From a virus (lineage: Duplodnaviria > Heunggongvirae > Uroviricota > Caudoviricetes), in IMG/VR virus record IMGVR_UViG_2799112330_000002, positions 64,001-128,000 of that record: a stretch of DNA of 64,000 nt. One strand, 5' to 3'. A program made the translations under genes and the position numbers. The notes below the pieces were generated by a model. That model was not told the origin of the DNA, ran no database searches, and saw only the letters and a list, made by a program, of their open reading frames with translations. Positions 1,643 to 63,207 of this stretch are shown piece by piece. Every line of letters starts with the position of its first letter. The first letter of the stretch is position 1.

Positions 1643-1643
1643 T

Positions 1644-3995: not shown

Positions 3996-4745
3996 ATGAT
4001 AACATTAAGAGAATATATATTAGAAGAGAAAATTCTGAATAAAGACAATGTATTTGTTTGGAATTATGCTCAATTTGATAAATGGGATGAGACAAAAGTA
4101 CTTGCGGAACTTAAAGAACAACTTGTCAAATTCCAGTTATCTTGTATTGTTACTATGGTAGGTGCAGCAAATGACAAAATGGAAAAAGATGAAAAAGAAT
4201 ATCCAGAAAAACTACGTAATGCTGCTATCAAAGCATCCAAAGAATACAAGTCATTTGAAAAGATGAATGATGAGAAAAAAGAACAATGGATTCTCAATAA
4301 GATAGAAGAAATCAAGAAGAATGCTGAGTATCTTACAAAGGACAATGGTAGATATAAGCATTTAGCTAAGAATTCTACAAAGGTTCCATTAATAGTTCCA
4401 CCAACAAAAATAGATACAACAACAATTGGTATTGATAATTTCAGAATACTAGTACGTAATGACATATATTCACAGCATTCTTCACAATTAATACATTGGG
4501 ATTCTACAGATATGGATCAATTGGCTAAATCAATATTCAAAGCTTTTCCTGATGACAATGAATTCAAAGATCATTTTAGAGGATTTGCGATATATACTGA
4601 TCAAAAGAACATAACTAGTTTTAATGCAATAAACATTACTTTTATGTTTGATGAAGAATTTGAAAACCAATTAGATAAATCTGTTAATCAATTTGCTGAT
4701 TTTATGCATCAAGAATATCAATCTGGAAGATATATGGGAGATTAA
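3996..4745 (+). CDS. putative internal head protein, leader MITLREYILE
   Basis: shared capsid-targeting-like N-terminal leader; cargo unrecognised. Confidence 0.7.
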   Translation: MITLREYILEEKILNKDNVFVWNYAQFDKWDETKVLAELKEQLVKFQLSCIVTMVGAANDKMEKDEKEYPEKLRNAAIKASKEYKSFEKMNDEKKEQWILNKIEEIKKNAEYLTKDNGRYKHLAKNSTKVPLIVPPTKIDTTTIGIDNFRILVRNDIYSQHSSQLIHWDSTDMDQLAKSIFKAFPDDNEFKDHFRGFAIYTDQKNITSFNAINITFMFDEEFENQLDKSVNQFADFMHQEYQSGRYMGD

Positions 4746-4776
4746 ATAAATTCATACTAGATAAAGAAGAAAATAA

Positions 4777-5610
4777 ATGAAAAGGTTGATAGATTATATT
4801 TGTGAATTAAGAGATGAAACATACTTTAAAGTTGCCCGTAAAAGAAATGAACAAGGCAAAGATATATCTGATATAATTTCGCATGCTAATGAAAGAATAA
4901 CTAAAGATTTTATCAAGGAATTGACATCATCAGATTGGTATAAAACATATGTAAAGAAAATAGAATACTCAGATGATTCATCAACTATTAAACTATTGTT
5001 GTCAGAACAAATGAGAGATGAATATGGGGCTGATCCAAAGTATGAAAATGAAAGACAGGAAATGTATGATAATCTTAAAACCCTTGCAAGAAAATATGGG
5101 CGTTTAATTCATGGATTACGATTTATGAACTGTTATGCAAATGAAGAACCAACTATTCTATTCTATTTGTTAGATAGAAAAAAATATTTGAAAGATATCA
5201 ATAAAGATACTATACTATATCATGTTACTTCAAAATTAGAAAATGCAAACAAAATTATTGAAAATGGAATTATAGTTAGTCAGCCGATTTTTACAACGTA
5301 TACATATAAATGTGTATTCGCATTCAAATCTAAAAGATTTATTGATATGTTTAGTAAAAAATTCTTAAAAAAGAAACAATATTATGTAATAGAATTCAAG
5401 GCTGGTGATAATATATATTTTGATGATTGGATGCTAAATAGTGAATTAATAACAGAATTACAATATAAATCACCTGGTGGCAATATGGATTCAATAAGAA
5501 AACGTGCATCACAAGCCATATTTACATTATCTAATATTGATAAAGAACAAATAGTTTCAGTAACAGAAATCAATGGTAAAAATAATAATGTAATATATTC
5601 AAAAGACTAA
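4777..5610 (+). CDS. putative internal head protein, leader MKRLIDYICE; possible ADP-ribosyltransferase-like C-terminal domain
   Basis: leader; LYHVTS...IIENGI...VFAF pattern. Confidence 0.6.
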   Translation: MKRLIDYICELRDETYFKVARKRNEQGKDISDIISHANERITKDFIKELTSSDWYKTYVKKIEYSDDSSTIKLLLSEQMRDEYGADPKYENERQEMYDNLKTLARKYGRLIHGLRFMNCYANEEPTILFYLLDRKKYLKDINKDTILYHVTSKLENANKIIENGIIVSQPIFTTYTYKCVFAFKSKRFIDMFSKKFLKKKQYYVIEFKAGDNIYFDDWMLNSELITELQYKSPGGNMDSIRKRASQAIFTLSNIDKEQIVSVTEINGKNNNVIYSKD

Positions 5611-5612
5611 TT

Positions 5613-5804
5613 ATGAAATCATTAAGACAATATCTAACCGAGGATTTACATGATGTTATTGTTAAAGTAGGAGACTACTGGAGAATAAAGGGACATGCTG
5701 GCAAGGGAACAAACACTCCTAAACGTGGATATTGGAAAGCTAAATATAAGACAAGAGAAAAAGCTGAAAATGCTTTGAAAGCATATTTTGCTAATAAAGG
5801 ATAA
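5613..5804 (+). CDS. small basic putative internal head protein, leader MKSLRQYLTE
   Basis: leader; Lys/Arg-rich, KTREKAENAL. Confidence 0.7.
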   Translation: MKSLRQYLTEDLHDVIVKVGDYWRIKGHAGKGTNTPKRGYWKAKYKTREKAENALKAYFANKG

Positions 5805-5828
5805 AAAATAAATAAAGAATATAAACTT

Positions 5829-6281
5829 ATGAAATCCTTAAATAATTATATAAATGAATCATTAGGTTATTATAAAACTTTATCAAATTTCTTAGAAACA
5901 TTTTGGTCTGAAGAAGATTGGTATGATGACATAAATGGAGCATTAGATGATAATGATGAACAAACTAGATTAAATTTAATTGATAACGGATATTGTTTGA
6001 CTGTATGTAATTGTGTATCATTTTTAGAAGACGAACCATTTTATGATGATGTTGAATATTACTTATTAGATGATGGTGGTTCAAGTTATCATTTCTTTAT
6101 GAAATATAAAGATCTTTATTATGATGCTTATAATTATAAAGGAGTAAAAAAATTATCAGATTTACAATTTTGCAAAAAATATATGAAAGGCAAATCTGAA
6201 GAATATTTAAATAAAAATTTAACTTTAGTAGGAAAAGGTGCCGATTTTAATTATGAAAAAGCACAAAGTTATATAAAATAA
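5829..6281 (+). CDS. putative internal head protein, leader MKSLNNYINE; possible papain/transglutaminase-like fold
   Basis: leader; GYC...HFFMKYKDLYYDA (C-H-D). Confidence 0.6.
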   Translation: MKSLNNYINESLGYYKTLSNFLETFWSEEDWYDDINGALDDNDEQTRLNLIDNGYCLTVCNCVSFLEDEPFYDDVEYYLLDDGGSSYHFFMKYKDLYYDAYNYKGVKKLSDLQFCKKYMKGKSEEYLNKNLTLVGKGADFNYEKAQSYIK

Positions 6282-6308
6282 TAAAAAAACATTCCTAAAA
6301 CATAAACC

Positions 6309-6758
6309 ATGAAGAATATTACTGAATATATAATAGAAGCTGCAAAATTCAATTATTGGGAAGATGTTATTGGATTTCCAGGCTATGAATTGAAAGTTCC
6401 TAAAAAATATATAAAGCCAATTAATAATACTAAATATTATCAAGCAGAATTTTTAGAAAAATATTTTGGTTGGCTTAACCAATGGATTGATAAGAATATT
6501 AAAAAGATAGTTCAAATAGTAACTAAAGAAAATAAAGATTTTCCAAAAGAAATTTCAATTAAGTTGCCAAGTGAATTAGGCGGTAGTTTACAATTGGACT
6601 GGGACTGCGGATGGACGGATAATATACCTCATGGTTCTGTTCGTGATGTTGAATTAAAAGTAAACAACGTTTCTCCATCATCAATGAGTCATAGTTCATT
6701 CTATCAAGCTCAAGAAGATTTAACTAGTTTTAAATTAATTAATGAAATTAAATTTTAA
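6309..6758 (+). CDS. putative internal head protein, leader MKNITEYIIE
   Basis: leader. Confidence 0.7.
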   Translation: MKNITEYIIEAAKFNYWEDVIGFPGYELKVPKKYIKPINNTKYYQAEFLEKYFGWLNQWIDKNIKKIVQIVTKENKDFPKEISIKLPSELGGSLQLDWDCGWTDNIPHGSVRDVELKVNNVSPSSMSHSSFYQAQEDLTSFKLINEIKF

Positions 6759-6777
6759 AATACATAAAATATAATAT

Positions 6778-7422
6778 ATGAAATCATTAATACAATACAT
6801 AACAGAACGAGTAAAAGATCTACCAAAGTCTATTACAGGATTAATTGTTTTTGATATTGATGATACTTTATTGAAAAGTAATCCTGCAACAATTGGTATA
6901 TATAAGAAAGAACCAGGGAAACCTGAAAAACGATTGACAACTGAAGAATTCGCAAAAGATCCAGATGCTGGTGATCCATCAAAGAAATCATGGTTTGACT
7001 ATAGAGAATTCAATGATCCAGTAAAAGTATATAACTCAATCATATCAGGAACGCCATTGATTAGAAATCTTAGAATAATGGATGACTATATTGAAGCCGG
7101 CTATGAATTCTGTTTTCTTACTGCAAGAAGTTGTGAAGAGACAATAAAGAAAGCTTTGAATGATTTCCTTAAAGTAAAGAAGACTGATGGTGCATTACAG
7201 GAACTTGGTGATATATTTAATAAGACATTATCACATGCAATAAATGATTCTTCTAAACAATATCCAGGCAGTTCTGATGCAGAAAAGAAAGCAAATGTAT
7301 TAAGAAAGCTTTGTAGTAAATATGATAGAGTTGTATTTGTTGATGATGACAGAAAAAATGTTATAGCAGCAAGAGAACTTAATCTTCCAAATCTTAAAGT
7401 CATAAAAGCATGGGATAACTAA
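6778..7422 (+). CDS. HAD-superfamily phosphatase with leader MKSLIQYITE
   Basis: motif I FDIDDTL, motif II LTAR, motif III K (EKKA), motif IV FVDDDRKN. Confidence 0.85.
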   Translation: MKSLIQYITERVKDLPKSITGLIVFDIDDTLLKSNPATIGIYKKEPGKPEKRLTTEEFAKDPDAGDPSKKSWFDYREFNDPVKVYNSIISGTPLIRNLRIMDDYIEAGYEFCFLTARSCEETIKKALNDFLKVKKTDGALQELGDIFNKTLSHAINDSSKQYPGSSDAEKKANVLRKLCSKYDRVVFVDDDRKNVIAARELNLPNLKVIKAWDN

Positions 7423-7440
7423 ATAAGAAAATATGATAAT

Positions 7441-7507
7441 ATATTAAAATCAATACTAAAATGTTAGAAGATCTGTGTAAATACGTAGGTCTTCTTTTTT
7501 ATTTTTA
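7441..7507 (+). repeat. intergenic terminator+promoter module, copy 1 (copy 2 at 14970-15037)
   Basis: ATATTAAAATCAATACTAAAATG, AGAAGATCT...GGTCTTCT hairpin, T-run, TTATTTTTA. Confidence 0.8.
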
Positions 7508-7535
7508 TATATAAGAATAAATTTGTTATATAATT

Positions 7536-8804
7536 ATGAAGCGACTTAAAGATTATATTTTTGAAAGTACATCAGATTTTATATTATTAAAAACATTTGA
7601 AGATGCTAAACAATGGTTTGAAAATACTGGGTGGATTAAAAATAATGATGATTCTAAACTTAAAGAAAAAATGAAAATTTCTTTAAATGATATATTAACT
7701 ATTTATGATATAGCTGATGAACATAATAAAATAGCACCATTAGTTGGTAATTATAAATCTAAAAGAGTATTTGCTATGCGTAGATGGATTGATAATTATA
7801 TTGATGAATGGTCAAAAATATCAAAAAATTCAAATATTACAGATGATTGGTTTTGGACTCCTATAAAAGGAATTTACGGTGGTCCTCATAACACAAATCT
7901 TAAAGAAGATGGATCATTTCAACCTACAGCAGAAGATATGGAATCTGTAATTAGTTTTGCGTATAATCATTTATCTAATGAAGAATATGATGATTATGAA
8001 AATATGAATTATGTTTGTAATTCTTCTAAAAATAAACCTAATCAAAAAGTAGAAAATTTATTAAATTATTATCAAGATGAAAAAAGATTTATGGATGGAT
8101 GTGCAAATGCATTAATTAAATTTATAAATAATAAATCTTTAAAATTTCATAAATTATTAACTAATGGGAAAACTTGCACGGAATTATGGAAAAAATTAGG
8201 AACATATGAAGAAGCTAATGAAAAAGTAAATAATACACCTAAAACAGATATTATATCATCAGATAATCAATATAAAATATCATTAAAAAAAGCTCATGGA
8301 TCTCAACTAATGTCAGGAGCATATTGTGAAAGTAAAGCAACAATAATGAGTATTGCAAAAGACACACTTAATAATGATGATTTTAAATTATTAGAAGATT
8401 TATTAAATGTAGATAAAAAATGGGCAAAATTATCTGGTAATAATAAAGGTATTGCAAAACAAAAAATAAATGGTTCTGATGAAATTAAAAAAATAATTAA
8501 TGATTCTGAGAATGCTGCTAATGATGTTAATAAAATATTAAATAATTTATTAGATCATAATGAAGAATTTAAAAAGGCATTATTATATGAAGCAATGACA
8601 GGAGAAATTAAATTTGGGGAAGAATCATTATTAGCAGCTAATTATGTATTTGTTTGGTCAACCAAAGAAACTGAAAATAAATTATATACAGTTAAAGATT
8701 ATCTTACATATTTATTAAGTAATAAATGTAAATTAAAAATTGAAGTTTCTTGGAAAACTGGTGGATCTACTTCATATCAAACATTAAGAATTGTAACAAA
8801 TTAA
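7536..8804 (+). CDS. putative PD-(D/E)xK nuclease-like protein with leader MKRLKDYIFE
   Basis: leader; E...TPKTDII...ISLKK...QLMSG pattern. Confidence 0.6.
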   Translation: MKRLKDYIFESTSDFILLKTFEDAKQWFENTGWIKNNDDSKLKEKMKISLNDILTIYDIADEHNKIAPLVGNYKSKRVFAMRRWIDNYIDEWSKISKNSNITDDWFWTPIKGIYGGPHNTNLKEDGSFQPTAEDMESVISFAYNHLSNEEYDDYENMNYVCNSSKNKPNQKVENLLNYYQDEKRFMDGCANALIKFINNKSLKFHKLLTNGKTCTELWKKLGTYEEANEKVNNTPKTDIISSDNQYKISLKKAHGSQLMSGAYCESKATIMSIAKDTLNNDDFKLLEDLLNVDKKWAKLSGNNKGIAKQKINGSDEIKKIINDSENAANDVNKILNNLLDHNEEFKKALLYEAMTGEIKFGEESLLAANYVFVWSTKETENKLYTVKDYLTYLLSNKCKLKIEVSWKTGGSTSYQTLRIVTN

Positions 8805-8820
8805 ATAAGTAATATAAATT

Positions 8821-9924
8821 ATGTCAAAACAAAAATTAAATATAGCAATCGGTCGTTTTCAACCATTTACTCAAGGCCATTTGAACATGGTTAATGAAGG
8901 TGAAGGACCATGTATAGTATATAGAATCAATTCATCAAATAAGACTATTGAACGTAAGAAGAAAGGAATTAAGATTGGTAGTAAGTCTTGGACTGATGAA
9001 TCTGTAAATAAGGTTATAGCTTATATTGATAATCCAACAGGTGACTTAACTGAGCAAGAAAAGGAGCTTCTTAAACGTCCTTTCACAAATGAATTAATTG
9101 ACAAAGAACTTGAGTCAGTCAAGAAGGCTAATAAGAATATAATTGATGTTGTTCCTGTTACTCATGTTTATGATGCTTTAGGAAGATTTAATGCATTTCT
9201 TACTGAACATTCTGATGAATATGAACCAGGATATTGGATGTGTGGAGATGATCGTAAAGCTGACTTTGAAAGTAATATTGAAAAGATGGCTAAATATACA
9301 GATCTTGAAACAGAATTCAAATCGGGAAAAACATATCCAAATATTCTTATTGGAAAACTTAAAGTGAATACTGGCAAGGGGCGTACTGAAGGAGTTTCTG
9401 GAACAGCAGTTCGTAAATCTATTCTCAATAAAGACAAAGCTGCATTTGAAAAAATAATGCCTAAGGGCGCAGGATCTTTATTCAATGATTTCACTAAAGC
9501 ATTTGATGAATTTAAAGCTCAATTACAAAATATCATTAAAGAACATAAGATGATGACACTTAAAGAATATATTTTTGAAGCACAAAAAACTTGGCAAACA
9601 GAAATAATAGATATTGCTAAACAATATATTATTGAACCAAATAATGGAGAATATGATATATCAGATATTACAAAAATGATCAATACTAAAAAAATAGATG
9701 AATATTTAATTGGCTATTTATGTGAATATCTTGCTTATTCTGTAACAAATAGATATGGGGATGATTTAACTGTTGATGAAATTGTGGACAAAATGAAATC
9801 TCAATCACGAAAAGAAGCATATTTAAAATTGCAAAACTATGAAGATTCAGATAAAGAAATAACTGATTTGATAATTCAAGGATTACAAAAAGGATTAAGG
9901 AGAAATCCTAATTTTCCAGAATAA
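8821..9924 (+). CDS. cytidylyltransferase-like (HxGH nucleotidyltransferase) fused to a C-terminal module beginning with internal leader MMTLKEYIFE
   Basis: GRFQPFTQGH, CGDDR, VSGTAVR motifs; internal in-frame ATG at 9550. Confidence 0.8.
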   Translation: MSKQKLNIAIGRFQPFTQGHLNMVNEGEGPCIVYRINSSNKTIERKKKGIKIGSKSWTDESVNKVIAYIDNPTGDLTEQEKELLKRPFTNELIDKELESVKKANKNIIDVVPVTHVYDALGRFNAFLTEHSDEYEPGYWMCGDDRKADFESNIEKMAKYTDLETEFKSGKTYPNILIGKLKVNTGKGRTEGVSGTAVRKSILNKDKAAFEKIMPKGAGSLFNDFTKAFDEFKAQLQNIIKEHKMMTLKEYIFEAQKTWQTEIIDIAKQYIIEPNNGEYDISDITKMINTKKIDEYLIGYLCEYLAYSVTNRYGDDLTVDEIVDKMKSQSRKEAYLKLQNYEDSDKEITDLIIQGLQKGLRRNPNFPE

Positions 9925-9947
9925 AAAATATAATTAAAGAACATAAA

Positions 9948-10322
9948 ATGCTGACACTTAAAGAATATATTACGGAAACAAAAGTTACAGATAACCAATT
10001 ATATGAAAATATAGAATGGTGTTTATCTGATTTATTAGAATTTAATGATGTCGATGAAAATTATTTATTATTGGCTATTGATGAATTTAATTCAGTTTAT
10101 AAAGCATTAACTGAAAAAAATGTAAAATATGATATTGATTTTATTTGGAAAACTTTATTAGAAAAATATGAAGATTTAATATATGAAAAAATAAATAAAA
10201 ATACATTTTTAAATATAATCAAAAAATATGATAAACAATTAACAGAAAATATATTGTTAAATGCAAAGGATAGTATAAAAGATATAAAAGACGAAATACA
10301 AAAAACAGGTAAATTAAGTTAA
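9948..10322 (+). CDS. putative internal head protein, leader MLTLKEYITE
   Basis: leader. Confidence 0.7.
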   Translation: MLTLKEYITETKVTDNQLYENIEWCLSDLLEFNDVDENYLLLAIDEFNSVYKALTEKNVKYDIDFIWKTLLEKYEDLIYEKINKNTFLNIIKKYDKQLTENILLNAKDSIKDIKDEIQKTGKLS

Positions 10323-10333
10323 TAAAAATTATT

Positions 10334-10627
10334 ATGAAATCAATTAATCAATATATTTCAGAATCACAGGATAAGTATTTTACACAACAAGAAATTGGTA
10401 AAATAACTAAAGATATGTGGGATAAGAATGGTCAATTTTATAAATTTATAAAAGATAAAGTTGATTCATTATCTAAAGAGGACATTAATGATTATCTTGA
10501 CCAATGTCTCGATGATGATAGATGCACAGCTGAATTTGCTTCCTATATTGAAATGATTATAGGACGTCATAACTTCAGTTTAGAACAAGTACAGCAGTTC
10601 ATAAATACAGAAGATTTAAAAGGATGA
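10334..10627 (+). CDS. putative internal head protein, leader MKSINQYISE
   Basis: leader. Confidence 0.7.
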   Translation: MKSINQYISESQDKYFTQQEIGKITKDMWDKNGQFYKFIKDKVDSLSKEDINDYLDQCLDDDRCTAEFASYIEMIIGRHNFSLEQVQQFINTEDLKG

Positions 10628-10630
10628 AAG
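10568..10630 (+). repeat. 63-bp direct repeat, copy 1 (copy 2 at 11659-11721; degenerate copy 3 at ~12089-12155)
   Basis: copies 1 and 2 match at 60/63 positions by manual alignment. Confidence 0.9.
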
Positions 10631-10664
10631 TAGTGAAAAATAAATATATTTAAATATTAATAAC

Positions 10665-11615
10665 ATGAAATCAATTAGAGAATATATTAATGAAGCATAT
10701 CAAGCAACATATTTAAAAGGTTGGAAACCCGTAGAACAATTAGATAATAAACATCATATTACTGTTAAAGATGATAATATATTAGGAGTATTTTTTGATA
10801 ATACATGGAAATGGCATCATAAGAGATATGGTAATATATATATAGGAATGCTTAATAAAAATGAAATATCTAATCCAGAAATTAAACTTTATAGTGATAA
10901 AGGAGTTTTCACAAGTATTAAAGAAATTCAAGATGCATATAATACTACTGAAAAGAATTTGTCAAAATTAGTTAAAGAAAATAAAATTAAAATGTCATTA
11001 GTACTTAATAATTTTAATATATATGTTAAAATAATAAAACGAAATGATCTTTGGTATGATGAGATTGCAGCAGCGGGATTAAAATTAGCAGGTGTAGGTA
11101 AATCATTAGGTAAATGTTCATTTGAAACATTCTCAGTTGTTGATATAGATTTATCAAATCCAGATAATAATGATGCAAAATATGTATATAAAAATTATTC
11201 TCAAATATCTATTAAAAACCAAGTTGAAACAAGTGCAAGAAAAGATGGCGGCAGAAAAGTAACAGGATATTGTGCATTTACATTTGTCCCATATCATAAT
11301 TATGAAGATATTGAAACTGATGTTATTAAAGATAATGTAGATAGAAATTTATTACCTGCATTATTACTTCAATATTTGAAAAATACAAATATAACATTTG
11401 ATGATAAAAAAATATCATTATCATTAATTAAGAATCAATTAGAATTACAAGAAGATAAATATAAAGAGTTTAAAGAATTTATAGATAATCATATTAAAAG
11501 TTTAAATGCTGATGTTTTAAAACGTCATGAAGAATACTTACAATCTGATGATTATAAAAATGGAGAAGCTAGTAGAAAACATGATGATTATTTATTAATG
11601 ACAAATGGAATGTAA
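10665..11615 (+). CDS. putative internal head protein, leader MKSIREYINE
   Basis: leader; flanked by the 63-bp repeats. Confidence 0.7.
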   Translation: MKSIREYINEAYQATYLKGWKPVEQLDNKHHITVKDDNILGVFFDNTWKWHHKRYGNIYIGMLNKNEISNPEIKLYSDKGVFTSIKEIQDAYNTTEKNLSKLVKENKIKMSLVLNNFNIYVKIIKRNDLWYDEIAAAGLKLAGVGKSLGKCSFETFSVVDIDLSNPDNNDAKYVYKNYSQISIKNQVETSARKDGGRKVTGYCAFTFVPYHNYEDIETDVIKDNVDRNLLPALLLQYLKNTNITFDDKKISLSLIKNQLELQEDKYKEFKEFIDNHIKSLNADVLKRHEEYLQSDDYKNGEASRKHDDYLLMTNGM

Positions 11616-11714
11616 TAAAAATAAACTATGAAATACACTTATTTAAAAAATTAAAATACATAATTTTAGTTTAGAACAAGTACAGCAGTTCATAAATACA
11701 GAAGATTTAAAGGG

Positions 11715-12062
11715 ATGAAAGACTTAAGTAATTTTATAATTGAAAGAGGAGCAGCTCCTAATGTTAATATTGATAAAAGCAAAGTTATGTCAAAATATCC
11801 TCATGTAAATATGGTTATGTCTATTATCGATGAGTTAAAGAAGCATAATGACTGTAAGTTTGATGGTAAACAATGGTCTGGTAATGATGCTGATTTATGG
11901 AAAGGTGCAGGACAATTCTTATTTGACTATATGAAAGAATTAGGACAAAAAGAACTAAAAGATATTGTTGCACATTTTGGATGGGAGGAATATATAACAG
12001 ATTTAAACAAGATCTATCCAGCAGAAATTTCTATATGTATGGCTCAAGAATTACAAAAATAA
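11715..12062 (+). CDS. putative internal head protein, leader MKDLSNFIIE
   Basis: leader. Confidence 0.7.
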   Translation: MKDLSNFIIERGAAPNVNIDKSKVMSKYPHVNMVMSIIDELKKHNDCKFDGKQWSGNDADLWKGAGQFLFDYMKELGQKELKDIVAHFGWEEYITDLNKIYPAEISICMAQELQK

Positions 12063-12164
12063 CATATATAATATATAGAGATAATATTGGATGTCATAAT
12101 TTTAGTTTAGAGCAAGTATAATAATTTATAAATATAGAAGATTTAAAAGGATAAAAAATAAACT

Positions 12165-12836
12165 ATGTTAACTTTATTAGAATATATCAATGCAGAACGT
12201 TCTAATTTTCCAGATGAAGTTTGGTTTAATGATAAATGGTATAACACAGAATCAAAATATGCTCGTCCATTCATCATTAATATAAAAACACACCAATCAT
12301 TATTTGGAGAAATTGGTCAATATCATTGTAAAATGTCTAAATTAAAAATAATGTTAAAATTTTTTTGTACATGGGATAGCTTAAAAGACGAATATAGAGT
12401 TAAAACATCAACATATCATGGGAGAATATGGGTAATTAATGATACAGATATAAATACCGTGTTAATATGTTGGTGGGAAGACTTAAATGATCAAAATTTT
12501 TATGAACTTAACAAAGAATTAATATTAAAATACAATAAAAAATTTAATACAAATATAACAAAAGCATTAGTAGTTAATAATAATGATGAATTTGTTAATT
12601 TTGACATAAATAATAAAAACATTGAACATATTAAACCACGTTCTTCTGATAATAAAAAACTAAAAGAAATGCATAAAATTATTCATTTGGCTTCTCAAAA
12701 GGATAAAGAAGAATACTTTAAACAATTTAAGAAAATAAGAGATGAAAATAATCAAACAAAATATTATAATCATACAAAATCAAAAACAGAAGCTGAATGG
12801 AGAAGTATTAAATATCAAGAAAGTTTAGAAGAATAA
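12165..12836 (+). CDS. putative internal head protein, leader MLTLLEYINAE
   Basis: leader variant. Confidence 0.65.
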   Translation: MLTLLEYINAERSNFPDEVWFNDKWYNTESKYARPFIINIKTHQSLFGEIGQYHCKMSKLKIMLKFFCTWDSLKDEYRVKTSTYHGRIWVINDTDINTVLICWWEDLNDQNFYELNKELILKYNKKFNTNITKALVVNNNDEFVNFDINNKNIEHIKPRSSDNKKLKEMHKIIHLASQKDKEEYFKQFKKIRDENNQTKYYNHTKSKTEAEWRSIKYQESLEE

Positions 12837-12856
12837 AATAAATAATAAATTTTAAT

Positions 12857-13207
12857 ATGAAATCTATTAATGAATATATAACGGAATCTGTAGCATCAAT
12901 TAAAGTGAATAAGATGAAACAAGAATTCAAACAGAAATTTGATAATAAAGTGACTATAGGTTCAGGCCGGGCAAATCATCAACAATTATATGATGTATAT
13001 ATCTATGATGATAAAATGAATACTCTGAAAGAAGTAAATGAAATTCTTAAACGTTATTTGAAAAAATGGAAAGGATTTAGTTATAAAGAATTAAAAGATA
13101 AACTTAAAGAAAAGGGAGATTTCTTTAAAGATTATCAAGATGATGATTTATGCACATTAGATAGATATCCAGTTGAATTTATCAGATTTACTTCCAGAGA
13201 TTTATAA
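12857..13207 (+). CDS. putative internal head protein, leader MKSINEYITE
   Basis: leader. Confidence 0.7.
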   Translation: MKSINEYITESVASIKVNKMKQEFKQKFDNKVTIGSGRANHQQLYDVYIYDDKMNTLKEVNEILKRYLKKWKGFSYKELKDKLKEKGDFFKDYQDDDLCTLDRYPVEFIRFTSRDL

Positions 13208-13215
13208 AGTACTAT

Positions 13216-13246
13216 AGAAGATCTAATCAATAGGTCTTCTTTTTTA
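13216..13246 (+). terminator. intrinsic terminator
   Basis: AGAAGATCTA-ATCAA-TAGGTCTTCT followed by T-run. Confidence 0.7.
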
Positions 13247-13315
13247 TTCATTTCCTTATAATATTTTTTTTTATTTTTAACTATATTATAAATGTATAAA
13301 TAAAATAGATCAATT

Positions 13316-13615
13316 ATGAAAGATATTAAACAATACATTACAGAAGGCAAAAATGGATGGGAATTTTTTGATAGTGCAACCGATACTTTTGGCGGTGGAA
13401 TAGAACTATCTGGACTTGAAAATAAAAAAATAAAATGGCTTTTAGTCAATACAGATTCAGAAATTATTGCTGGTGTTACAGAATATAATTTAGATTCATG
13501 GGCAGAGGATGATGAATATTTTAAAGATGCTGCAAAAGCAATCAAATCATTAAAGATAGGAGACTCTTATGATGCTGATGGCGGTATAAATATTTATCTT
13601 AGAATTAGAAAATAA
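13316..13615 (+). CDS. putative internal head protein, leader MKDIKQYITE
   Basis: leader. Confidence 0.7.
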   Translation: MKDIKQYITEGKNGWEFFDSATDTFGGGIELSGLENKKIKWLLVNTDSEIIAGVTEYNLDSWAEDDEYFKDAAKAIKSLKIGDSYDADGGINIYLRIRK

Positions 13616-13637
13616 AAATAAAATATTAGTAAATAGT

Positions 13638-14138
13638 ATGAAAAGTATTAATGCATACATAACAGAAAGATATCAGAATAATGCATCAAATAAAGAGGCT
13701 ATGTTCTTGCATTTAGATGGTTTGCGTCAATCAGAAGGATTTTCATTTACCGAAGGAGAAAAGGCTTTACTTTTAAAATATGATACTGATGGATATCGTA
13801 TTCAAGTTAGAGGTATTGTAGAAATTGAAAAGGTACTTAAGAACAGTATTCGTATAAAGACCGAAGATGCAGATTCAACCGATTTTTATCATAGTTTAAA
13901 ATTTGATAAGACTGGTATTGCTATAGTTAAGACAAATAGCAAATATCGTGGTAAGTCAACAGCATATTGGGTTCTATATAATAAAGAACTTATCAATAGT
14001 GATAAAGATGGTAAGGATATTACTGAAATATTAAATACTAAGGGTAATATCTGGGGATTCCATTTATATGGTCATGAAGATTTCCAAAAACAAGATCTTA
14101 AAGATCTTAAAAAATATGTTAAAGAAATGAATAAATAA
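13638..14138 (+). CDS. putative internal head protein, leader MKSINAYITE
   Basis: leader. Confidence 0.7.
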   Translation: MKSINAYITERYQNNASNKEAMFLHLDGLRQSEGFSFTEGEKALLLKYDTDGYRIQVRGIVEIEKVLKNSIRIKTEDADSTDFYHSLKFDKTGIAIVKTNSKYRGKSTAYWVLYNKELINSDKDGKDITEILNTKGNIWGFHLYGHEDFQKQDLKDLKKYVKEMNK

Positions 14139-14140
14139 AT

Positions 14141-14383
14141 ATGAAAGACATAATGAATTTTTTGATAAATGAATCTAGAACAAGATTTATAGACATTGAA
14201 CAATATGGAAATTCATGGATAAAAGAATGGGGTTCTGAATATTGTGGGGATGTTTTGAAAAACTTTATAAAAGGAGTTGAAAGAGGTATGAAATGTCTTA
14301 AATCAGATGATGCCAAATTTCAAAAACGTTGTGAAGATTGTATTAGTGAAATATTAGAAAAAATAAATAAAGACATATATTAA
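14141..14383 (+). CDS. putative internal head protein, leader MKDIMNFLINE; paralog of 14386-14655
   Basis: leader; SWIKEWGSEYCG and FQKRCEDCI shared with the next ORF. Confidence 0.75.
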   Translation: MKDIMNFLINESRTRFIDIEQYGNSWIKEWGSEYCGDVLKNFIKGVERGMKCLKSDDAKFQKRCEDCISEILEKINKDIY

Positions 14384-14385
14384 AT

Positions 14386-14655
14386 ATGAAGAACTTAAAA
14401 GAAAAGTTAATAAATGAAGCAAAGAAAACAGATTTTGAAAAAATAGAAGATCTTGGTGCTTCATGGATAAAAGAATGGGGATCTGAATATTGTGGTAATA
14501 TTCTTAGTTCTGTTATAAAAGGAATTCAGAAAGGAATAAAAGAAAATCCATATACTAATGATAAGAATGCATATCCAGCAAATAATACATTTCAGAAACG
14601 TTGTGAAGACTGCATTAAGAAAATCCTTAATGAAATAAATGAAGACATATATTAA
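14386..14655 (+). CDS. putative internal head protein, leader MKNLKEKLINE; paralog of 14141-14383
   Basis: leader variant; shared motifs. Confidence 0.75.
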   Translation: MKNLKEKLINEAKKTDFEKIEDLGASWIKEWGSEYCGNILSSVIKGIQKGIKENPYTNDKNAYPANNTFQKRCEDCIKKILNEINEDIY

Positions 14656-14690
14656 ATATGAAGAACTTAAAAAATATTATATATTAAATT

Positions 14691-14963
14691 ATGAAAGACA
14701 TTAAAAACTATTTAGTTAATGAAGCAAAATCATATAATTTTAAAGATATTAAATATACAATGATATCCTATTATAAACCAGAAGATCCATTAGCATTTTT
14801 ATTAGAAGATATATCAGAAATAAGTGATATATATTATGATTGGGATTTTAAACCTGAAGATGTCGATAAAATTATAGAAGAAGTTAATAAGCTTCAAGTA
14901 AATGAATGTTATGTAAATAAATCTGGCACAAATGATTTTGAAGTTATTTCAAGAATTAAATAA
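14691..14963 (+). CDS. putative internal head protein, leader MKDIKNYLVNE
   Basis: leader. Confidence 0.7.
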   Translation: MKDIKNYLVNEAKSYNFKDIKYTMISYYKPEDPLAFLLEDISEISDIYYDWDFKPEDVDKIIEEVNKLQVNECYVNKSGTNDFEVISRIK

Positions 14964-15062
14964 ATTATAATATTAAAATCAATACTAAAATGATTAGAAG
15001 ATCTGTATGAATATATGGATCTTCTTTTTTATTTTTAACTATATATTTAATTATTAAAGATT

Positions 15063-15383
15063 ATGGAAACAATTATAAGCTTTTTCTCAGATCATTTTTG
15101 GGCAACTTGTGCAATGCTGTCATCAATTACTGTAATTATTGCAGGTTATTTCAATGCATTATTGAATACAAATAAGATATGGAAACAAGTTGTATCTTGG
15201 TTAACTAGTATCATATTGACTGTAGGAGGTTATTTTGCTGGAACTATAACACTTAATGAGCCAGTATGGTTGACAATTATCTTAACAGGTATTATTGTTG
15301 GTTTGTCATCAAATGGTATCTATGATATTCCTAAGATCAAGGAGCTAATAAACAAAATAACTAAAAACATTCCTAAAGCATAA
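15063..15383 (+). CDS. small multi-pass membrane protein, holin-like
   Basis: three hydrophobic segments, GLSSNGIYD, basic C-terminal tail. Confidence 0.6.
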   Translation: METIISFFSDHFWATCAMLSSITVIIAGYFNALLNTNKIWKQVVSWLTSIILTVGGYFAGTITLNEPVWLTIILTGIIVGLSSNGIYDIPKIKELINKITKNIPKA

Positions 15384-15386
15384 GCT

Positions 15387-15794
15387 ATGAAAAAATTCTT
15401 TAGTAAAATTTGGAATTGGATCAAAGGATTATTCTTTGATAAGAAGATCAAATATGAAGATGAAATATTATTGACTTGGAATCCTAGTTGTCCCAAATGT
15501 GGAACAACAATGGGATATTTTGACACAGGTGTTGTTGAAGTTAAATATGAATGGTTTACCGGAGGAATACGAACACATATATCTGGTCATGGTTCACAAG
15601 AATATCAATTCCATTATTATAAATGTGGTCGTTGTGGAGAATGGCAGATGTATGAATACCGAGAAACTCCATCATGGTGGGATGATCTATGGGGAAATGA
15701 TTGCCCATTTACTCGAGGAGACATCATAAAGAAATGGCAAAATAATGAATTCCGTATGAAGGAATATGAAGGTCATACAATAACAAAATGGTAA
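15387..15794 (+). CDS. zinc-ribbon protein
   Basis: CPKCG...CGRCG; amphipathic N-terminus. Confidence 0.6.
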   Translation: MKKFFSKIWNWIKGLFFDKKIKYEDEILLTWNPSCPKCGTTMGYFDTGVVEVKYEWFTGGIRTHISGHGSQEYQFHYYKCGRCGEWQMYEYRETPSWWDDLWGNDCPFTRGDIIKKWQNNEFRMKEYEGHTITKW

Positions 15795-15815
15795 ACAAAA
15801 AATTAATATATAGTT

Positions 15816-16388
15816 ATGAAATCATTAAAACAATTTATAAATGAAACTATTAATAAATCATTAGATGAAATCATTTTTGAAGGATTTTTAGATAAATTAA
15901 AGAATGCTATTAGTGATGTGATTGATAATCCACAAAAATATATTGATAATGTCAAATCACAGGTTGATGAGTTAAAAAAGACAACATATATGCGGTATAA
16001 AAACAAAGAAAATATTGAAGCTGTAGCAAAAGAACTTGATAAATTAAATAATGATGAAAGCCTAAAGAACATATATAATTATGTTAAACAGATATTTAAT
16101 GGCAAAGATAAGCAATTAAAATTTGGTTTATTAGGTGATTCTGGATATTTAGAAGATATATTCAAAGATGTTGAAAAAACATTTAATTCTGATGATAATA
16201 AAACATTTGCTATTGTACAGATTGCAAATGCTATAGCTATAGCAACAAAAGATAAATTTCATGTTCCATCCGCATCAGATTATTATAGTAATTCGCATTC
16301 ACATAATAGTTATCATTCAAGTAAATCATCAAGAAAAGCAGGTATGATTTCAGCCGCAGTAGGAGCCGGAATGGCAATGAGAAGATAA
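15816..16388 (+). CDS. putative internal head protein, leader MKSLKQFINE
   Basis: leader; second IFE|G site; Ser/His-rich segment then hydrophobic AAVGAGMA tail. Confidence 0.7.
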   Translation: MKSLKQFINETINKSLDEIIFEGFLDKLKNAISDVIDNPQKYIDNVKSQVDELKKTTYMRYKNKENIEAVAKELDKLNNDESLKNIYNYVKQIFNGKDKQLKFGLLGDSGYLEDIFKDVEKTFNSDDNKTFAIVQIANAIAIATKDKFHVPSASDYYSNSHSHNSYHSSKSSRKAGMISAAVGAGMAMRR

Positions 16389-16420
16389 AGAAATATTAAA
16401 TAAACATAACAAATAATTTT

Positions 16421-17713
16421 ATGAAATCACTTATACAATATATTTCAGAAACTGAAAGAATATCATCAATAGATGATTATATACATGAAGCCTTGCAACC
16501 AATTTTAGAAGGTGGTGCTGGTGGTCACATGGCTCATCCTTTTGATTATACTGACTTTACAGCAAACGACTTGATAGAATTAGTTGACTCATTATTTCAA
16601 GGCAAGGTTGAAGACTTAAAAGAAAAACTTGATGGATTCAATATTGAAGCAACAATGAATAATGATGGTCAAGTTGTATTTGTAAGAAATGATGAGGAAC
16701 GAAATTCTGAACAAGGTGGTATTACTATTGATGAAATGTATAAGAAATGGGAAGGCAAAGATCAACAGATAAAAGTATATACATCTTCAGGAAAAGTCAT
16801 TGAACAGATTTTCAAGAAATTCCCTGTTAAGTTTTTCAATCCAGATCCCAATCATCGTAAAATGTATAATTGTGAATGCATAGTTTCAGGACAGACAAAC
16901 ATTATGCCTTATGCTGCTGATAGGGTAGCGTTTCATGGATATAAGATTTATGAAAAGGGAATAGGAACAAAGAAAGGTAAGTTCTTTAATAAGGAAGTTT
17001 GGAATGTTGTTGAAGACGTAGAAGGAAATGTTGATGATATCTATAAAGCTGCTGAAGGAATAGACAAAGCTAAGCCACGTCCTAATTTGGTTATACGTTC
17101 ATTAGAAGATGGAATTAAGTTTGCAAAGAAATTCTCACAAGACATATCTAAATTATGGTCTGATGAAGGATTAGAAAATACTGCTTCTGTGGAAGACTGG
17201 AAAAAGTCTAGATTTAGAAAATTTGCTCCTGCTTGGTGTAAAGATGATGATCGTATATTTAATCGTCTATGCAATGCTGACAAAACAGTCAACTTGAGAT
17301 TATTGAAAAAAGAATATGAAGATCATATTGATGAATTGAATGAGCTTGATAAGAAGGAAGGAAAGAAACTTGTGGGCAAGATCATGGAACCAATGGACAA
17401 TCTTTTCTTATCAATAGGTAATGAACTTATTGATCAACTTGATGGATTCATTAATTCAGGTTCAAAGGAAAAGATTGTAGCTCAATTGAAGGCAGATATG
17501 GAATCAACAGTTAAAGCAGTTGAAGCATCAGATTCTGTTGATGCAAAAGATAAACTTGAAAAATCAATACAACGTCTTCAAGCATTGAATAATAAGTATA
17601 ATGCAGCTGAAGGAATTGTAATAATGTATAAAGGTAGAAGAATGAAATTCACTGGAAGTTTTGCTCCATTGAATGCTGCCTTAGGGACAAGATTTATGTT
17701 AGAAGAAAAATAA
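16421..17713 (+). CDS. ligase-like (KxDG) nucleotidyltransferase-fold protein with leader MKSLIQYISE
   Basis: EGGAGGHMAHPFD, EKLDG (motif I-like), AEGIVI (motif IV-like), MKFTG (motif V-like). Confidence 0.65.
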   Translation: MKSLIQYISETERISSIDDYIHEALQPILEGGAGGHMAHPFDYTDFTANDLIELVDSLFQGKVEDLKEKLDGFNIEATMNNDGQVVFVRNDEERNSEQGGITIDEMYKKWEGKDQQIKVYTSSGKVIEQIFKKFPVKFFNPDPNHRKMYNCECIVSGQTNIMPYAADRVAFHGYKIYEKGIGTKKGKFFNKEVWNVVEDVEGNVDDIYKAAEGIDKAKPRPNLVIRSLEDGIKFAKKFSQDISKLWSDEGLENTASVEDWKKSRFRKFAPAWCKDDDRIFNRLCNADKTVNLRLLKKEYEDHIDELNELDKKEGKKLVGKIMEPMDNLFLSIGNELIDQLDGFINSGSKEKIVAQLKADMESTVKAVEASDSVDAKDKLEKSIQRLQALNNKYNAAEGIVIMYKGRRMKFTGSFAPLNAALGTRFMLEEK

Positions 17714-17727
17714 TAATAAAATAAATT

Positions 17728-18075
17728 ATGAAATCTATAACTCAATATTTAAAGGAAGACAGATTCAGTGATTATGAAAACAAAGCTTCCGAACATATTA
17801 TAAATGTTTTGCAAGATTATGCAGATTTAGAAACTCCAATTGAAAAGAATGATTATGTTATAAAGTTAAATTCAAATATCAAAAAGTCAGATCTTAAAGA
17901 TATAGATAAAGAATTATGTAAAGTACTTGCATCTCATGAAGTTTCTGTAGGATTAAAAAGTCTATCTGTCAATGTATTCAAAGAACCATTACTATCAATA
18001 TCTGAAGTTAATGGAAAATATATTGTTTGCTTAAAGGGCAAAGCAAAGACATACTATGAAAATAATTTTAAATAA
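17728..18075 (+). CDS. putative internal head protein, leader MKSITQYLKE
   Basis: leader. Confidence 0.7.
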   Translation: MKSITQYLKEDRFSDYENKASEHIINVLQDYADLETPIEKNDYVIKLNSNIKKSDLKDIDKELCKVLASHEVSVGLKSLSVNVFKEPLLSISEVNGKYIVCLKGKAKTYYENNFK

Positions 18076-18087
18076 ATATTATAAAAC

Positions 18088-18119
18088 AAAAAGGGAGTAA
18101 CTTAAGTTACTCCTTTTTT
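18088..18119. terminator. bidirectional intrinsic terminator
   Basis: AAAAGGGAGTAAC-TTAA-GTTACTCCTTTTT between convergent genes. Confidence 0.85.
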
Positions 18120-51636: not shown

Positions 51637-51885
51637 ATGAAGACACTTGAAGGCTATATAAATGAAATGCATATTGAAGATAATATATTGAAGAGAATAT
51701 ATTTTCATACTTGTATAGAATTCAAACTGCCACATAATCTTTATCCTTATATAGTTGAAAGCAATGGAAAGTTTGAGCAATTAGGCCCAAGACTAGTTTG
51801 TCAATATATAGACATGAATCTTAAAGAAGTATGTTTTGACAATAGTCTATTAGATGAAGAAACATATTGGGACAATTTAATATAA
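51637..51885 (+). CDS. putative internal head protein, leader MKTLEGYINE
   Basis: leader; TTATTTTTA motif at 51598. Confidence 0.6.
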   Translation: MKTLEGYINEMHIEDNILKRIYFHTCIEFKLPHNLYPYIVESNGKFEQLGPRLVCQYIDMNLKEVCFDNSLLDEETYWDNLI

Positions 51886-60327: not shown

Positions 60328-61002
60328 ATGAAGAAACTAAATCAGTTTATAACAGAAAAGTTTAGACTTTCAAAAGACAATCTTAATTCTAAATATAACT
60401 ATTTCCCAGAAACAAGAGATGAACTAAGAGATTTAATTGATAAATTAATTAAAGAAAGAGGTAATGATGCAGATCTTAATGATATAGATACTTCTAAGAT
60501 TACAGATATGTCTTTTTTATTTAGTGATTCTAAGTTTAATGGAGATATATCTGAATGGGATGTAAGTAATGTTGAAAATATGGAAAGTATGTTTGATAAA
60601 TCCATTTTTAACGGAGATATATCTGGATGGGATGTTAGTAATGTTAAGTACATGGACTGGATGTTTTCTGACTCATACTTTAATGGGGATATATCTAGTT
60701 GGAACGTTACAAATGTTACTAATATGTTTGCAATGTTTTATCTGTCAAAATTTAATGAAGATATATCTAATTGGAATGTTAGTAATGTTAAAAATATGGG
60801 TAGTATGTTTGAAAACTGTATTTTTAACGGAGATATCTCTCAATGGGATGTTAGCAATGTTAAGAATATGCAAGAAATGTTTTATAATTCTAAATTCAAT
60901 GGAGACATATCTCAATGGAATGTAAGTAATGTTGAAAAAATGAATGATATATTTCGAAGTTGTCCATTAGAACAGAATCCACCCAAATGGTATAAAAAAT
61001 AA
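60328..61002 (+). CDS. DUF285/BspA-type LRR repeat protein with leader MKKLNQFITE, copy 1
   Basis: 22-aa repeats FNGDISxWxVSNVxxMxxMF. Confidence 0.85.
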   Translation: MKKLNQFITEKFRLSKDNLNSKYNYFPETRDELRDLIDKLIKERGNDADLNDIDTSKITDMSFLFSDSKFNGDISEWDVSNVENMESMFDKSIFNGDISGWDVSNVKYMDWMFSDSYFNGDISSWNVTNVTNMFAMFYLSKFNEDISNWNVSNVKNMGSMFENCIFNGDISQWDVSNVKNMQEMFYNSKFNGDISQWNVSNVEKMNDIFRSCPLEQNPPKWYKK

Positions 61003-61021
61003 CATAAACTAATATATATAT

Positions 61022-62667: not shown

Positions 62668-63207
62668 ATGAAAAGTATTAATTCATTCTTAACGGAAGCT
62701 ATTAAAGATGTTGATAAGGGAATTATTGATATGCTTAATCTATTTGCTAATAATAGTGATGGATATAGAAAAGAACTGTATTCTCAAATGGCTAAAGATG
62801 CTAATTCAATTGATATAGTTTCATTAGATGAAGTTTTTACAAAAGAAGAAATAAAAGAAATAAAGAAAAGAGTACAACCACAACCAAAATGCTGTTATGA
62901 GAATGCTTGGAAACTTTGTGACAGATTTGAATATGAAGGAAAGCATAAGATAGAATACTGTGAAGGATATATGAACTATAAGGGACTGCCAATAGAACAT
63001 GCCTTCAATAAAGTAGACGGTAAATATGTAGACATAACAGTTGAGTTAGCGTTAAAAAGAGATCCCAATGATGACACTTATATAGTAATTGGAGAATTTG
63101 ATACCGATAAAGTAAGAGAAATACTTGTTCAAAACGGATTCTATGGTAATATCTATGATACAATATTTCTGAACAAATACAAAGAAAAAATATCTAAAGT
63201 TGCATAA
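62668..63207 (+). CDS. transglutaminase/papain-like fold protein with leader MKSINSFLTE
   Basis: leader; CCYENA, EGY, EHAFNKVDGKYVDIT (C-H-D triad). Confidence 0.7.
   Translation: MKSINSFLTEAIKDVDKGIIDMLNLFANNSDGYRKELYSQMAKDANSIDIVSLDEVFTKEEIKEIKKRVQPQPKCCYENAWKLCDRFEYEGKHKIEYCEGYMNYKGLPIEHAFNKVDGKYVDITVELALKRDPNDDTYIVIGEFDTDKVREILVQNGFYGNIYDTIFLNKYKEKISKVA

Follow-up and report, generated by a model that had tools for sequence, protein, structure and literature searches.

In internal protein III (IPIII) of phage T4, the ten N-terminal residues, MKTYQEFIAE, are enough for packaging; within this capsid targeting sequence (CTS), positions 4 and 7 direct targeting, and positions 8 and 10 control processing (PMC9026906). 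The T4 protease gp21 cuts after L/I-x-E; Alt, a packaged ADP-ribosyltransferase, is processed by it, the core proteins gp22, gp67 and gp68 are also processed and leave the head, and foreign proteins bearing a CTS are packaged (PMC9026906). Both the CTS and the nature of the T-even internal proteins, as diverse proteins sharing the CTS alone, are already established (PMC3012670), and for phage SPN3US some 50 head proteins have been reported, with over 40 MDa of ejection proteins (PMC7411985). Here we analyse an array of genes at positions 3996–18075 that share a CTS-like leader peptide. The array lies within a 64-kb window, by which we mean the whole stretch of DNA under study, corresponding to bases 64,001–128,000 of C82, a contig of an uncultured phage (410,106 bp, 29% GC; the bin holds 1.9 Mb in 103 contigs).

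The leader, with the consensus M-K-x-[LI]-x-x-[YF]-[IL]-x-E, and the T4 CTS are both ten residues long and begin with M-K. In both, position 4 is hydrophobic, position 7 is aromatic, position 8 is Ile or Leu and position 10 is Glu, which makes the end an [IL]-x-E cleavage context. The four fixed internal positions of the leader (4, 7, 8 and 10) are the functional positions of the IPIII CTS. T4 and the present phage also have in common a gp21-family protease, a gp23-family capsid protein, cargo that shares the leader only, and variable loci. They differ at position 4, which is Tyr in T4 and Leu or Ile here; in the scaffold, which is the separate protein gp22 in T4 and is fused to the protease here; and in numbers, since T4 has three such proteins and its T-even relatives a handful, whereas this phage has 86, of which 21 lie in one array. 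Unlike in T4, over half of the tagged genes belong to a single DUF285 repeat family. We consider it rather probable, judging from the sequences, that the leader is a T4-type CTS together with a propeptide, greatly expanded in number, and the phage probably packs a large enzyme kit into its capsid. The initial annotation of this DNA had proposed a T4-type capsid-targeting tag; that proposal agrees with the protease and capsid families, the leader positions, the boundary at Glu10, the scaffold motif and the relatives, including Sphingomonas phage PAU, and was too modest in scale, the system being larger than claimed (86 genes). The proposal is supported in part: its further elements, namely presence of the cargo in virions, loss of the leader and injection ahead of all phage gene expression, are hypothetical.

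Enrichment and conservation of the leader

A simple gene call gave 511 genes on C82, at a coding density of 92%. A regular expression for the leader matched 92 open reading frames (ORFs) on C82 as compared with 11 in the other 1.5 Mb of the bin; among called genes, the matches were 86 of 511 on C82 and three of 1478 in the remainder. When the motif was relaxed, it occurred at a rate of 0.157 per N-terminus versus 0.00066 per internal residue, a difference of about 240-fold. The leader was also scanned for with a position-specific scoring matrix (PSSM) trained on 17 array leaders only, at a cut-off of ≥10 bits. This matrix recovered 59 of the 487 held-out C82 genes and none of the 1478 genes elsewhere in the bin, with two hits among 9740 shuffled N-termini and five among 113,511 internal positions. 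Enrichment of the leader at N-termini is far above chance. In the window, PSSM scores were negative for all structural, tail and ribonucleotide-reductase genes, in line with the earlier statement that the leader is absent from replication, tail and metabolic genes. The figure of over 20 cargoes put forward at that time is too low as a genome-wide total, which is 86.

The tagged set falls into two classes. The first consists of 46 DUF285 repeat proteins, which begin with MKKLNQFITE followed by KFRLSKDN and are paralogues located outside the array; the second consists of 40 diverse proteins, half of them in the array. Three proteins of the DUF285 class (C82 139330–139908, 250947–251741 and 292831–293712) carry tandem double leaders, for example MKKLNHYISE-AERIPRLHG-YITE-KF, which suggests leader duplication or redundant cleavage sites.

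Within the diverse class, 34 leaders are ten residues long. Met1, [IL]4, [YF]7, [IL]8 and Glu10 were found in all 34 and Lys2 in 30, while positions 3, 5, 6 and 9 were variable and conservation collapsed from position 11. Orthologues of the HAD-superfamily gene 6778–7422 (120 listed, 70–100% identity; 116 of these 120 keep the leader) gave per-position conservation values for positions 1–10 of 1.00, 0.94, 0.82, 0.83, 0.29, 0.34, 0.99, 0.99, 0.53 and 1.00, the fixed positions of the leader thus lying at 0.83–1.0 and the free positions 5, 6 and 9 at 0.29–0.53. Synonymous codons at the fixed positions matched genome-wide usage (AAA/AAG 24/6, GAA/GAG 27/7, ATT/ATA 14/12), demonstrating that selection acts on the leader peptide.

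The sequences that follow the Glu had been described as unrelated, and an all-against-all BLASTP comparison of the mature parts indeed yielded one related pair only (14141/14386, 53% identity); among the tagged bodies that could be characterised, the folds are distinct. That the tagged genes form one paralogous family was rejected because of these unrelated bodies. Spurious ORFs were rejected in view of four families with hundreds of conserved homologues, and a nucleotide-level element is disfavoured by synonymous variation together with the internal copies of the leader described below.

Organization of the array

The array comprises 24 plus-strand ORFs over about 14 kb. Twenty have a clear leader, one has a degenerate leader (14386), two have none (15063 and 15387), and one has an internal leader only (8821–9924). 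All 18 leaders reported in the initial annotation were located in the ORF listing at their claimed starts (3996, 4777, 5613, 5829, 6309, 6778, 7536, 9948, 10334, 10665, 11715, 12165, 12857, 13316, 13638, 15816, 16421 and 17728), although the one at 12165, MLTLLEYINAE, is 11 residues long. Three further variants, each of 11 residues, are present as well: MKDIMNFLINE at 14141, MKNLKEKLINE at 14386, which is without an aromatic residue, and MKDIKNYLVNE at 14691. The Met of every tagged ORF is the first ATG, 0–16 codons downstream of the preceding stop. As had been noted, the array adjoins the head genes on their upstream side; it ends 0.8 kb before the protease gene and 2.7 kb before the capsid gene. 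The features are given below by window position and strand, and were assigned from the ORF and its leader unless other evidence is stated in brackets.

3996..4745, plus strand: tagged gene, 249 aa, MITLREYILE, no family found (PSSM score 18.6 bits)
4777..5610, plus strand: tagged gene, 277 aa, MKRLIDYICE, C-terminal ADP-ribosyltransferase fold (AlphaFold2, Foldseek, VIA)
5613..5804, plus strand: tagged gene, 63 aa, MKSLRQYLTE, mature part basic (pI 10.0)
5829..6281, plus strand: tagged gene, 150 aa, MKSLNNYINE, acidic (pI 4.4)
6309..6758, plus strand: tagged gene, 149 aa, MKNITEYIIE
6778..7422, plus strand: tagged gene, 214 aa, MKSLIQYITE, HAD-superfamily hydrolase/phosphatase (Pfam PF00702)
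7466..7495, plus strand: terminator-like hairpin, then TTATTTTTA..TATA promoter-like motif, a transcription-unit boundary (hairpin and motif scan)
7536..8804, plus strand: tagged gene, 422 aa, MKRLKDYIFE, HinP1I/MspI-type restriction-endonuclease fold (AlphaFold2, Foldseek, VIA)
8821..9924, plus strand: 367-aa ORF with no N-terminal leader, HIGH-motif nucleotidyltransferase and internal leader MMTLKEYIFE (weak Pfam/NCBIfam matches)
9948..10322, plus strand: tagged gene, 124 aa, MLTLKEYITE
10334..10627, plus strand: tagged gene, 97 aa, MKSINQYISE, the last 63 nt of which recur ahead of 11715 and 12165 (ORF and repeat comparison)
10665..11615, plus strand: tagged gene, 316 aa, MKSIREYINE
11715..12062, plus strand: tagged gene, 115 aa, MKDLSNFIIE
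12165..12836, plus strand: tagged gene, 223 aa, with the 11-residue leader MLTLLEYINAE
12857..13207, plus strand: tagged gene, 116 aa, MKSINEYITE
13216..13240, plus strand: terminator-like hairpin, then promoter-like motif (hairpin and motif scan)
13316..13615, plus strand: tagged gene, 99 aa, MKDIKQYITE
13638..14138, plus strand: tagged gene, 166 aa, MKSINAYITE
14141..14383, plus strand: tagged gene, 80 aa, with an 11-residue leader, paralogue of 14386 (ORF and BLASTP)
14386..14655, plus strand: 89-aa gene with the degenerate leader, paralogue of 14141 (ORF and BLASTP)
14691..14963, plus strand: tagged gene, 90 aa, with an 11-residue leader
14996..15025, plus strand: terminator-like hairpin with the same stem sequence as at 7466, then promoter-like motif (hairpin and repeat comparison)
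15063..15794, plus strand: two untagged genes, one for a hydrophobic protein of 106 aa and one for a protein of 135 aa with CxxC...CxxC (negative PSSM scores)
15816..16388, plus strand: tagged gene, 190 aa, MKSLKQFINE
16421..17713, plus strand: tagged gene, 430 aa, MKSLIQYISE, RNA-ligase-like, KxDG motif (homologues, sub-threshold PF09414)
17728..18075, plus strand: tagged gene, 115 aa, MKSITQYLKE, last gene of the array
18088..18119, no strand assigned: bidirectional terminator-like hairpin closing the array (hairpin scan)
18910..20607, plus strand: prohead protease (gp21/Peptidase_S77)-scaffold fusion (Pfam, PHROGs, alignment to 5JBL)
20744..22540, plus strand: major capsid protein, gp23 family (Pfam Gp23)
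51637..51885, plus strand: tagged gene outside the array, 82 aa, MKTLEGYINE
60328..61696, plus strand: two tagged DUF285 repeat proteins of the 46-copy paralogue class
62668..63207, plus strand: tagged gene outside the array, 179 aa, MKSINSFLTE

The hairpins at 7466, 13216, 14996 and 18088, together with a conserved promoter-like motif, mark out at least four transcription units in the array. A similar hairpin and motif stand ahead of 3996 (3940–3960). The terminator hairpins have a near-identical stem (AGAAGATCT...AGGTCTTCT), which is followed by TTTTTTATTTTTA(T/A)(A/C)TATA about 35–47 nt before the next ATG. Ten copies of this terminator and promoter-like composite occur on C82, five of them ahead of tagged genes, and the composite may be a portable cassette and recombination site. 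A sigma-70 promoter scan performed no better than shuffles. Placing the array in a late class by means of the TTATTTTTA..TATA motif was dropped as the motif is also found ahead of non-structural genes. The upstream regions of leader genes are AT-rich and contain no Shine-Dalgarno sequence.

Gene boundaries within the array are repeated. The 63-nt 3' end of gene 10334–10627 is present at 10568–10630 (100%), 11659–11721 (95%) and 12095–12157 (83%), each copy directly preceding a leader gene, and in the second copy what was the stop-codon region of the original now serves as the start codon of gene 11715. On sequence grounds, these repeats resemble a scar left where cassettes were inserted between genes.

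Directly upstream of the array, a gene for a MoxR-type AAA_5 ATPase (34–1266) lies beside that for a 751-aa protein (the two within 34–3899) with an HExxH motif (DHECLH), a C-terminal DxSxS vWA-like motif (DRSGSMGG) and, in its middle, a long low-complexity region rich in Lys, Ala, Glu and Asp. The two could be a chaperone or metallopeptidase pair, possibly for head or cargo assembly. The sole minus-strand gene between the array and the protease (18118–18765) encodes an acidic, coiled-coil-like protein of 215 aa with no leader and no family match. In the tail gene region, a single ORF of 3234 aa (29077–38781) is also without a leader.

The head module

The product of 18910–20607 consists of a protease, an acidic linker, a coiled coil and a scaffold repeat domain. 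Its protease domain (residues 1–185) matched Peptidase_S77 (PF03420, 1.6e-11) and phrog_207 (1.5e-41), aligned to the T4 gp21 structure 5JBL, and has kept the catalytic His and Ser motifs (GELEHP and ISSR). The linker (residues 190–270) is an extreme low-complexity segment of Asp, Lys, Glu and Ser (KDSKDEKDSKEEKDSKEDKDSKDDD...) and is very variable in length among relatives.

Of all 511 proteins, the protease-scaffold ranks first for enrichment of internal [FYW][ILV]xE sites, with nine sites (Poisson p 1.8e-6), which as tandem copies are not independent events. Eight of the sites are W-[IV]-x-E, located in the scaffold at a strict 12-residue period (W[IV]xEEFAPEVQ), and match the end of the leader. 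The periodic sites, 8–10 in the scaffold domain, are kept in seven of seven relatives examined, and relatives at 45–60% identity have 9–11 sites. The protease itself has at its N-terminus a conserved [MLI]-[VI]-[FY]-E10 (here VFE10), which parallels the LIE-9 site of T4 gp21 (PMC9026906), and has V-I-x-E at its boundary with the linker (here VIYE184). The capsid protein encoded by 20744–22540 matched Pfam Gp23 at 3e-29 and has a conserved K[LM]LTE near residue 17.

Predicted cargo proteins

For four array proteins, a resemblance in fold or family was obtained. An AlphaFold2 model of the 4777–5610 product (predicted local distance difference test score, pLDDT, 87) has a C-terminal domain at approximately residues 135–277, for which the top Foldseek matches were all ADP-ribosyltransferases (ARTs). 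VIA comparison gave a Z score of 10.1 for Tpt1/KptA (root-mean-square deviation 2.3 over 95 aa) and 9.6 for pertussis S1; there was no Pfam match. The leader is kept in 10 of 10 homologues, down to 37% identity, and in these homologues H149 and Y175/Y177 never vary and E206 hardly does, which would suggest a catalytic site that is H-Y-E-like rather than R-S-E. This gene resembles T4 Alt in pairing a CTS-like leader with an ART-fold domain; it differs from Alt in having no sequence similarity to it, the nearest structures being Tpt1/KptA and toxin-type ARTs (Z 8–10).

The product of 6778–7422 matched Pfam PF00702 at 4e-7. That of 7536–8804 was modelled at a pLDDT of 88, with a fold spanning residues ~115–422. 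Foldseek matched it to MspI (1.3e-4) and VIA to HinP1I (Z 10.0, 194 aa) and MspI (Z 9.4, 199 aa), the next match being at 4.4, and the match spans the whole length of those enzymes. T237-D238 and S249-x-K251 (TD...SxK) are invariant and are putative counterparts of the PD-(D/E)xK-type catalytic residues; many homologues bear a leader.

The 16421–17713 product carries, in addition to its leader, two further [IL]-x-E sites (YIHE24 and ILE30) ahead of the sequence GGAGGH, and has a KxDG motif (EKLDGF). It has 562 homologues; among the 120 listed, all 117 that are unfused begin with a leader-like N-terminus. Of these, about one third have the ten-residue form with a second I-[LF]-E site. In about two thirds the form is twelve residues long, MLSLQRYIYLFE, and the conserved GGAGGH follows it without a gap. 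The query itself had no Pfam match, and five of eight homologues matched PF09414 just below threshold (best 26.6 bits, cut-off 27); a phmmer search against PDB sequences returned noise only. For most of the small array proteins, and for ten other tagged C82 proteins, searches of Pfam, PHROGs and NCBIfam gave nothing.

A point that goes beyond the initial annotation is that leaders are kept inside fusion proteins. ORF 8821–9924 encodes an NMN-adenylyltransferase-like domain with a HIGH motif (weak Pfam/NCBIfam matches), fused in frame at residue 244 to a leader and a 124-aa body. The internal leader, MMTLKEYIFE at nt 9550, had been overlooked; with the 26 nt upstream of it, it shares 85% identity with the start region of gene 9948, indicating that it is a tandem duplicate fused in frame. 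The same architecture is seen in other phages, in which ligase-like or nuclease-like enzymes repeatedly have a nucleotidyltransferase, with a HIGH motif or of the pol-beta type, fused upstream of them and a leader kept at the junction (P0083, P0120, P0122, P0286 and P0264). In P0083, P0120, P0264 and ORF 8821–9924 the leader stands between two enzyme domains, and in some fusions it has no Met; one junction reads KLNLAEFIKE...LINE|GGAGGH and another MPSLYKYLIE-SLPIQHFITE. Such leaders fit a putative cleavable targeting linker, by which the upstream domain would ride along, and not a translation-start element.

Relatives and other large phages

Among named phages, even those nearest by capsid protein are distant. 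Identity is 36% to an uncultured 462-kb phage, 32% to Sphingomonas phage PAU and 31% to the Lak phages, and Tenacibaculum phages also rank here. In size, GC content and gene number, C82 is similar to the "Jug" gut phages (PMC12880540). IMG/VR phages at 57–59% capsid identity had 2, 5, 6, 7 and 20 leader matches, as compared with 0 for a reversed-pattern control, and the contig with 20 matches has a leader cluster 10–15 kb upstream of the capsid gene, as in the present phage.

The cultured jumbo phage PAU (JQ362498) has a leader of its own, the nine-residue MK[TS]L..L[YF]E, on 18 genes. Thirteen of these lie in the portal-protease-scaffold-capsid region; among them are gp152, annotated as the scaffold, and gp142 and gp154, which the depositors labelled "internal capsid proteins". 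The head module compared here comprised gp142–146, 149, 150 and 152–154. Between the present clade and PAU, the aromatic-[IV]-x-E motif of the scaffold follows the end of the leader. PAU differs from the present phage in its consensus, which ends in L-[YF]-E and is nine residues long, in its smaller set, which is mostly within the head module, and in having separate protease and scaffold genes. The leader pattern of the present phage had no match in PAU or in Tenacibaculum phage PTm1. Neither LR756500, from an uncultured phage, nor Lak-A2 showed a comparable leader within 15 kb of the capsid gene, a narrow look that is not evidence of absence. Since PAU and the closer relatives carry it, a short, putatively cleavable leader on head-module proteins would appear to be a feature of the lineage that is much expanded here.

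The phiKZ-like phages (phiKZ, 201phi2-1 and SPN3US) are comparable in having many head-internal proteins, cleavage after Glu by a distant gp21 homologue, and paralogue families among the cargo (PMC9026906; PMC7411985). They differ in their S/A-x-E motif, in longer propeptides without a uniform ten-residue tag, and in belonging to another capsid and genome lineage. A literature search found no publication in which jumbo, huge or mega-phages are connected with a capsid targeting sequence, and neither a review of jumbo-phage genomics (PMC7824862) nor the Jug-phage paper (PMC12880540) mentions such a tag.

Proposed mechanism and alternative explanations

We propose that the short amphipathic leader would dock each newly made protein to the prohead core, that is, to the scaffold half of the protease-scaffold fusion protein. 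The gp21-family protease would then cut after the Glu at [YF]-[IL]-x-E, freeing the mature protein inside the shell, and would also cut up the scaffold wherever one of the eight W-[IV]-x-E repeats occurs. The mature proteins would stay with the DNA, and at least some would exit with it at infection. For part of the tagged set, the small acidic products above all, the fate may instead be breakdown as prohead core. The 14-kb array may serve as a cassette store of cargo in at least four transcription units, reshuffled by recombination at conserved gene boundaries. The recognisable cargo would be NAD- and nucleic-acid-directed enzymes, namely the ART fold, the HAD phosphatase, the HinP1I/MspI-like nuclease and the RNA-ligase-like enzyme, with an NMNAT-like nucleotidyltransferase joined upstream of the internal leader.

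Several points weigh against this interpretation. The tagged set is predicted from gene sequences, in this phage and its close relatives, and the L/I-x-E motif is short. The 86 tagged genes amount to 17% of the proteome, far above any known packaged set, and many are distant from the head module. The promoter-like motif of the array units also precedes non-structural genes, and late co-expression with the head genes is unsupported by the motif. The scaffold sites count as tandem copies, and the PAU labels as those of its depositors. Whereas the T4 internal proteins are small and basic, the cargo here is often large, acidic and enzyme-like: the mature array proteins have pI values of 4.4–10.0, about half being acidic or neutral, and lengths of 53–420 aa, and several tagged proteins exceed 400 aa. 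Small size and basic charge are, however, properties of the T4 internal proteins and not of the CTS mechanism, since T4 packages foreign CTS-bearing proteins. A scale of 86 is implausible by the standards of T4, but less so by those of SPN3US, given its ~50 head proteins and >40 MDa of ejection proteins.

The alternative that survives best accepts that the leader targets the prohead and is cleaved, but holds that most tagged proteins, especially the small acidic ones, are core or filler that is degraded or expelled at maturation, in which case there would be no large injected arsenal. We regard this as unlikely. It has a precedent in T4 gp22, gp67 and gp68, which are gp21-processed and leave the head (PMC9026906), and in the annotated PAU scaffold, which bears the leader itself; moreover, of the array's 21 products with a leader, the degenerate one of 14386 being counted, eight are shorter than 120 aa, and several have a pI of 4.4–4.6. 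For the enzyme-like cargo this role is disfavoured, as assembly filler needs no catalytic-type motifs, and yet the ART fold, the HAD hydrolase, the HinP1I/MspI-like nuclease and the ligase-like protein keep such motifs across hundreds of phages. Enrichment for internal strict cleavage motifs was also confined, among the array proteins, to ORF 8821–9924.

It is distinctly improbable, in our view, that the leader is instead an address tag for another machine, be it the MoxR-type AAA+ ATPase with the HExxH/vWA-like protein at 34–3899, a modifying enzyme, a degradation system or some other intracellular compartment. The position of that gene pair directly upstream of the array and the scatter of tagged genes over the whole genome would suit such a machine, whereas the tag agrees with the T4 CTS in its length, its functional positions and the [IL]-x-E at its end. 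Furthermore, the tag co-occurs with the gp21-family protease, the sole partner examined for co-occurrence, the scaffold domain repeats the four-residue end motif of the leader, and the leader genes of PAU are concentrated in the head module.

That the common start of these genes works at the nucleotide level, with the peptide playing no part, as either an initiation region for a host that does without Shine-Dalgarno sequences or a scar of cassette duplication, is scarcely credible: the AT-rich upstream regions without a Shine-Dalgarno sequence and the repeated gene-boundary segments, which show recombination at junctions, speak for it, but the conserved residues are encoded by freely varying synonymous codons, positions 4, 7, 8 and 10 are fixed while 5, 6 and 9 vary both across families and within orthologues, the fusion proteins retain internal leaders without a start codon, and the phage presumably translates its untagged genes with no need of a leader.

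Implications

Beyond the T4-type reading preferred here, we raise as a tentative possibility, one that we would not call probable, that the CTS has been turned into a general modular loading system. Any gene that gained the tag, whether N-terminally or inside the protein as a cleavable linker, would join an injected arsenal of up to ~86 proteins. These might include a nuclease able to cut unmodified host DNA, and an RNA-repair and NAD kit (the ligase-like protein, the Tpt1-like ART fold, the HAD phosphatase and the NMNAT-like domain) that could blunt tRNA-cleaving or NAD-depleting abortive-infection defences before phage transcription.

For uncultured phages, the tag offers a simple rule by which virion cargo can be predicted from sequence, and for the engineering of phage protein delivery it suggests portable packaging tags and cleavable linkers of natural origin. 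If it works as in T4, this phage and its numerous gut relatives would hold by far the largest and most diverse capsid-delivered protein set known, which would help to account for 17% of the genes of a 410-kb genome. The first minutes of a megaphage infection would then have to be rethought, with counter-defence coming from pre-loaded enzymes and not from early genes.

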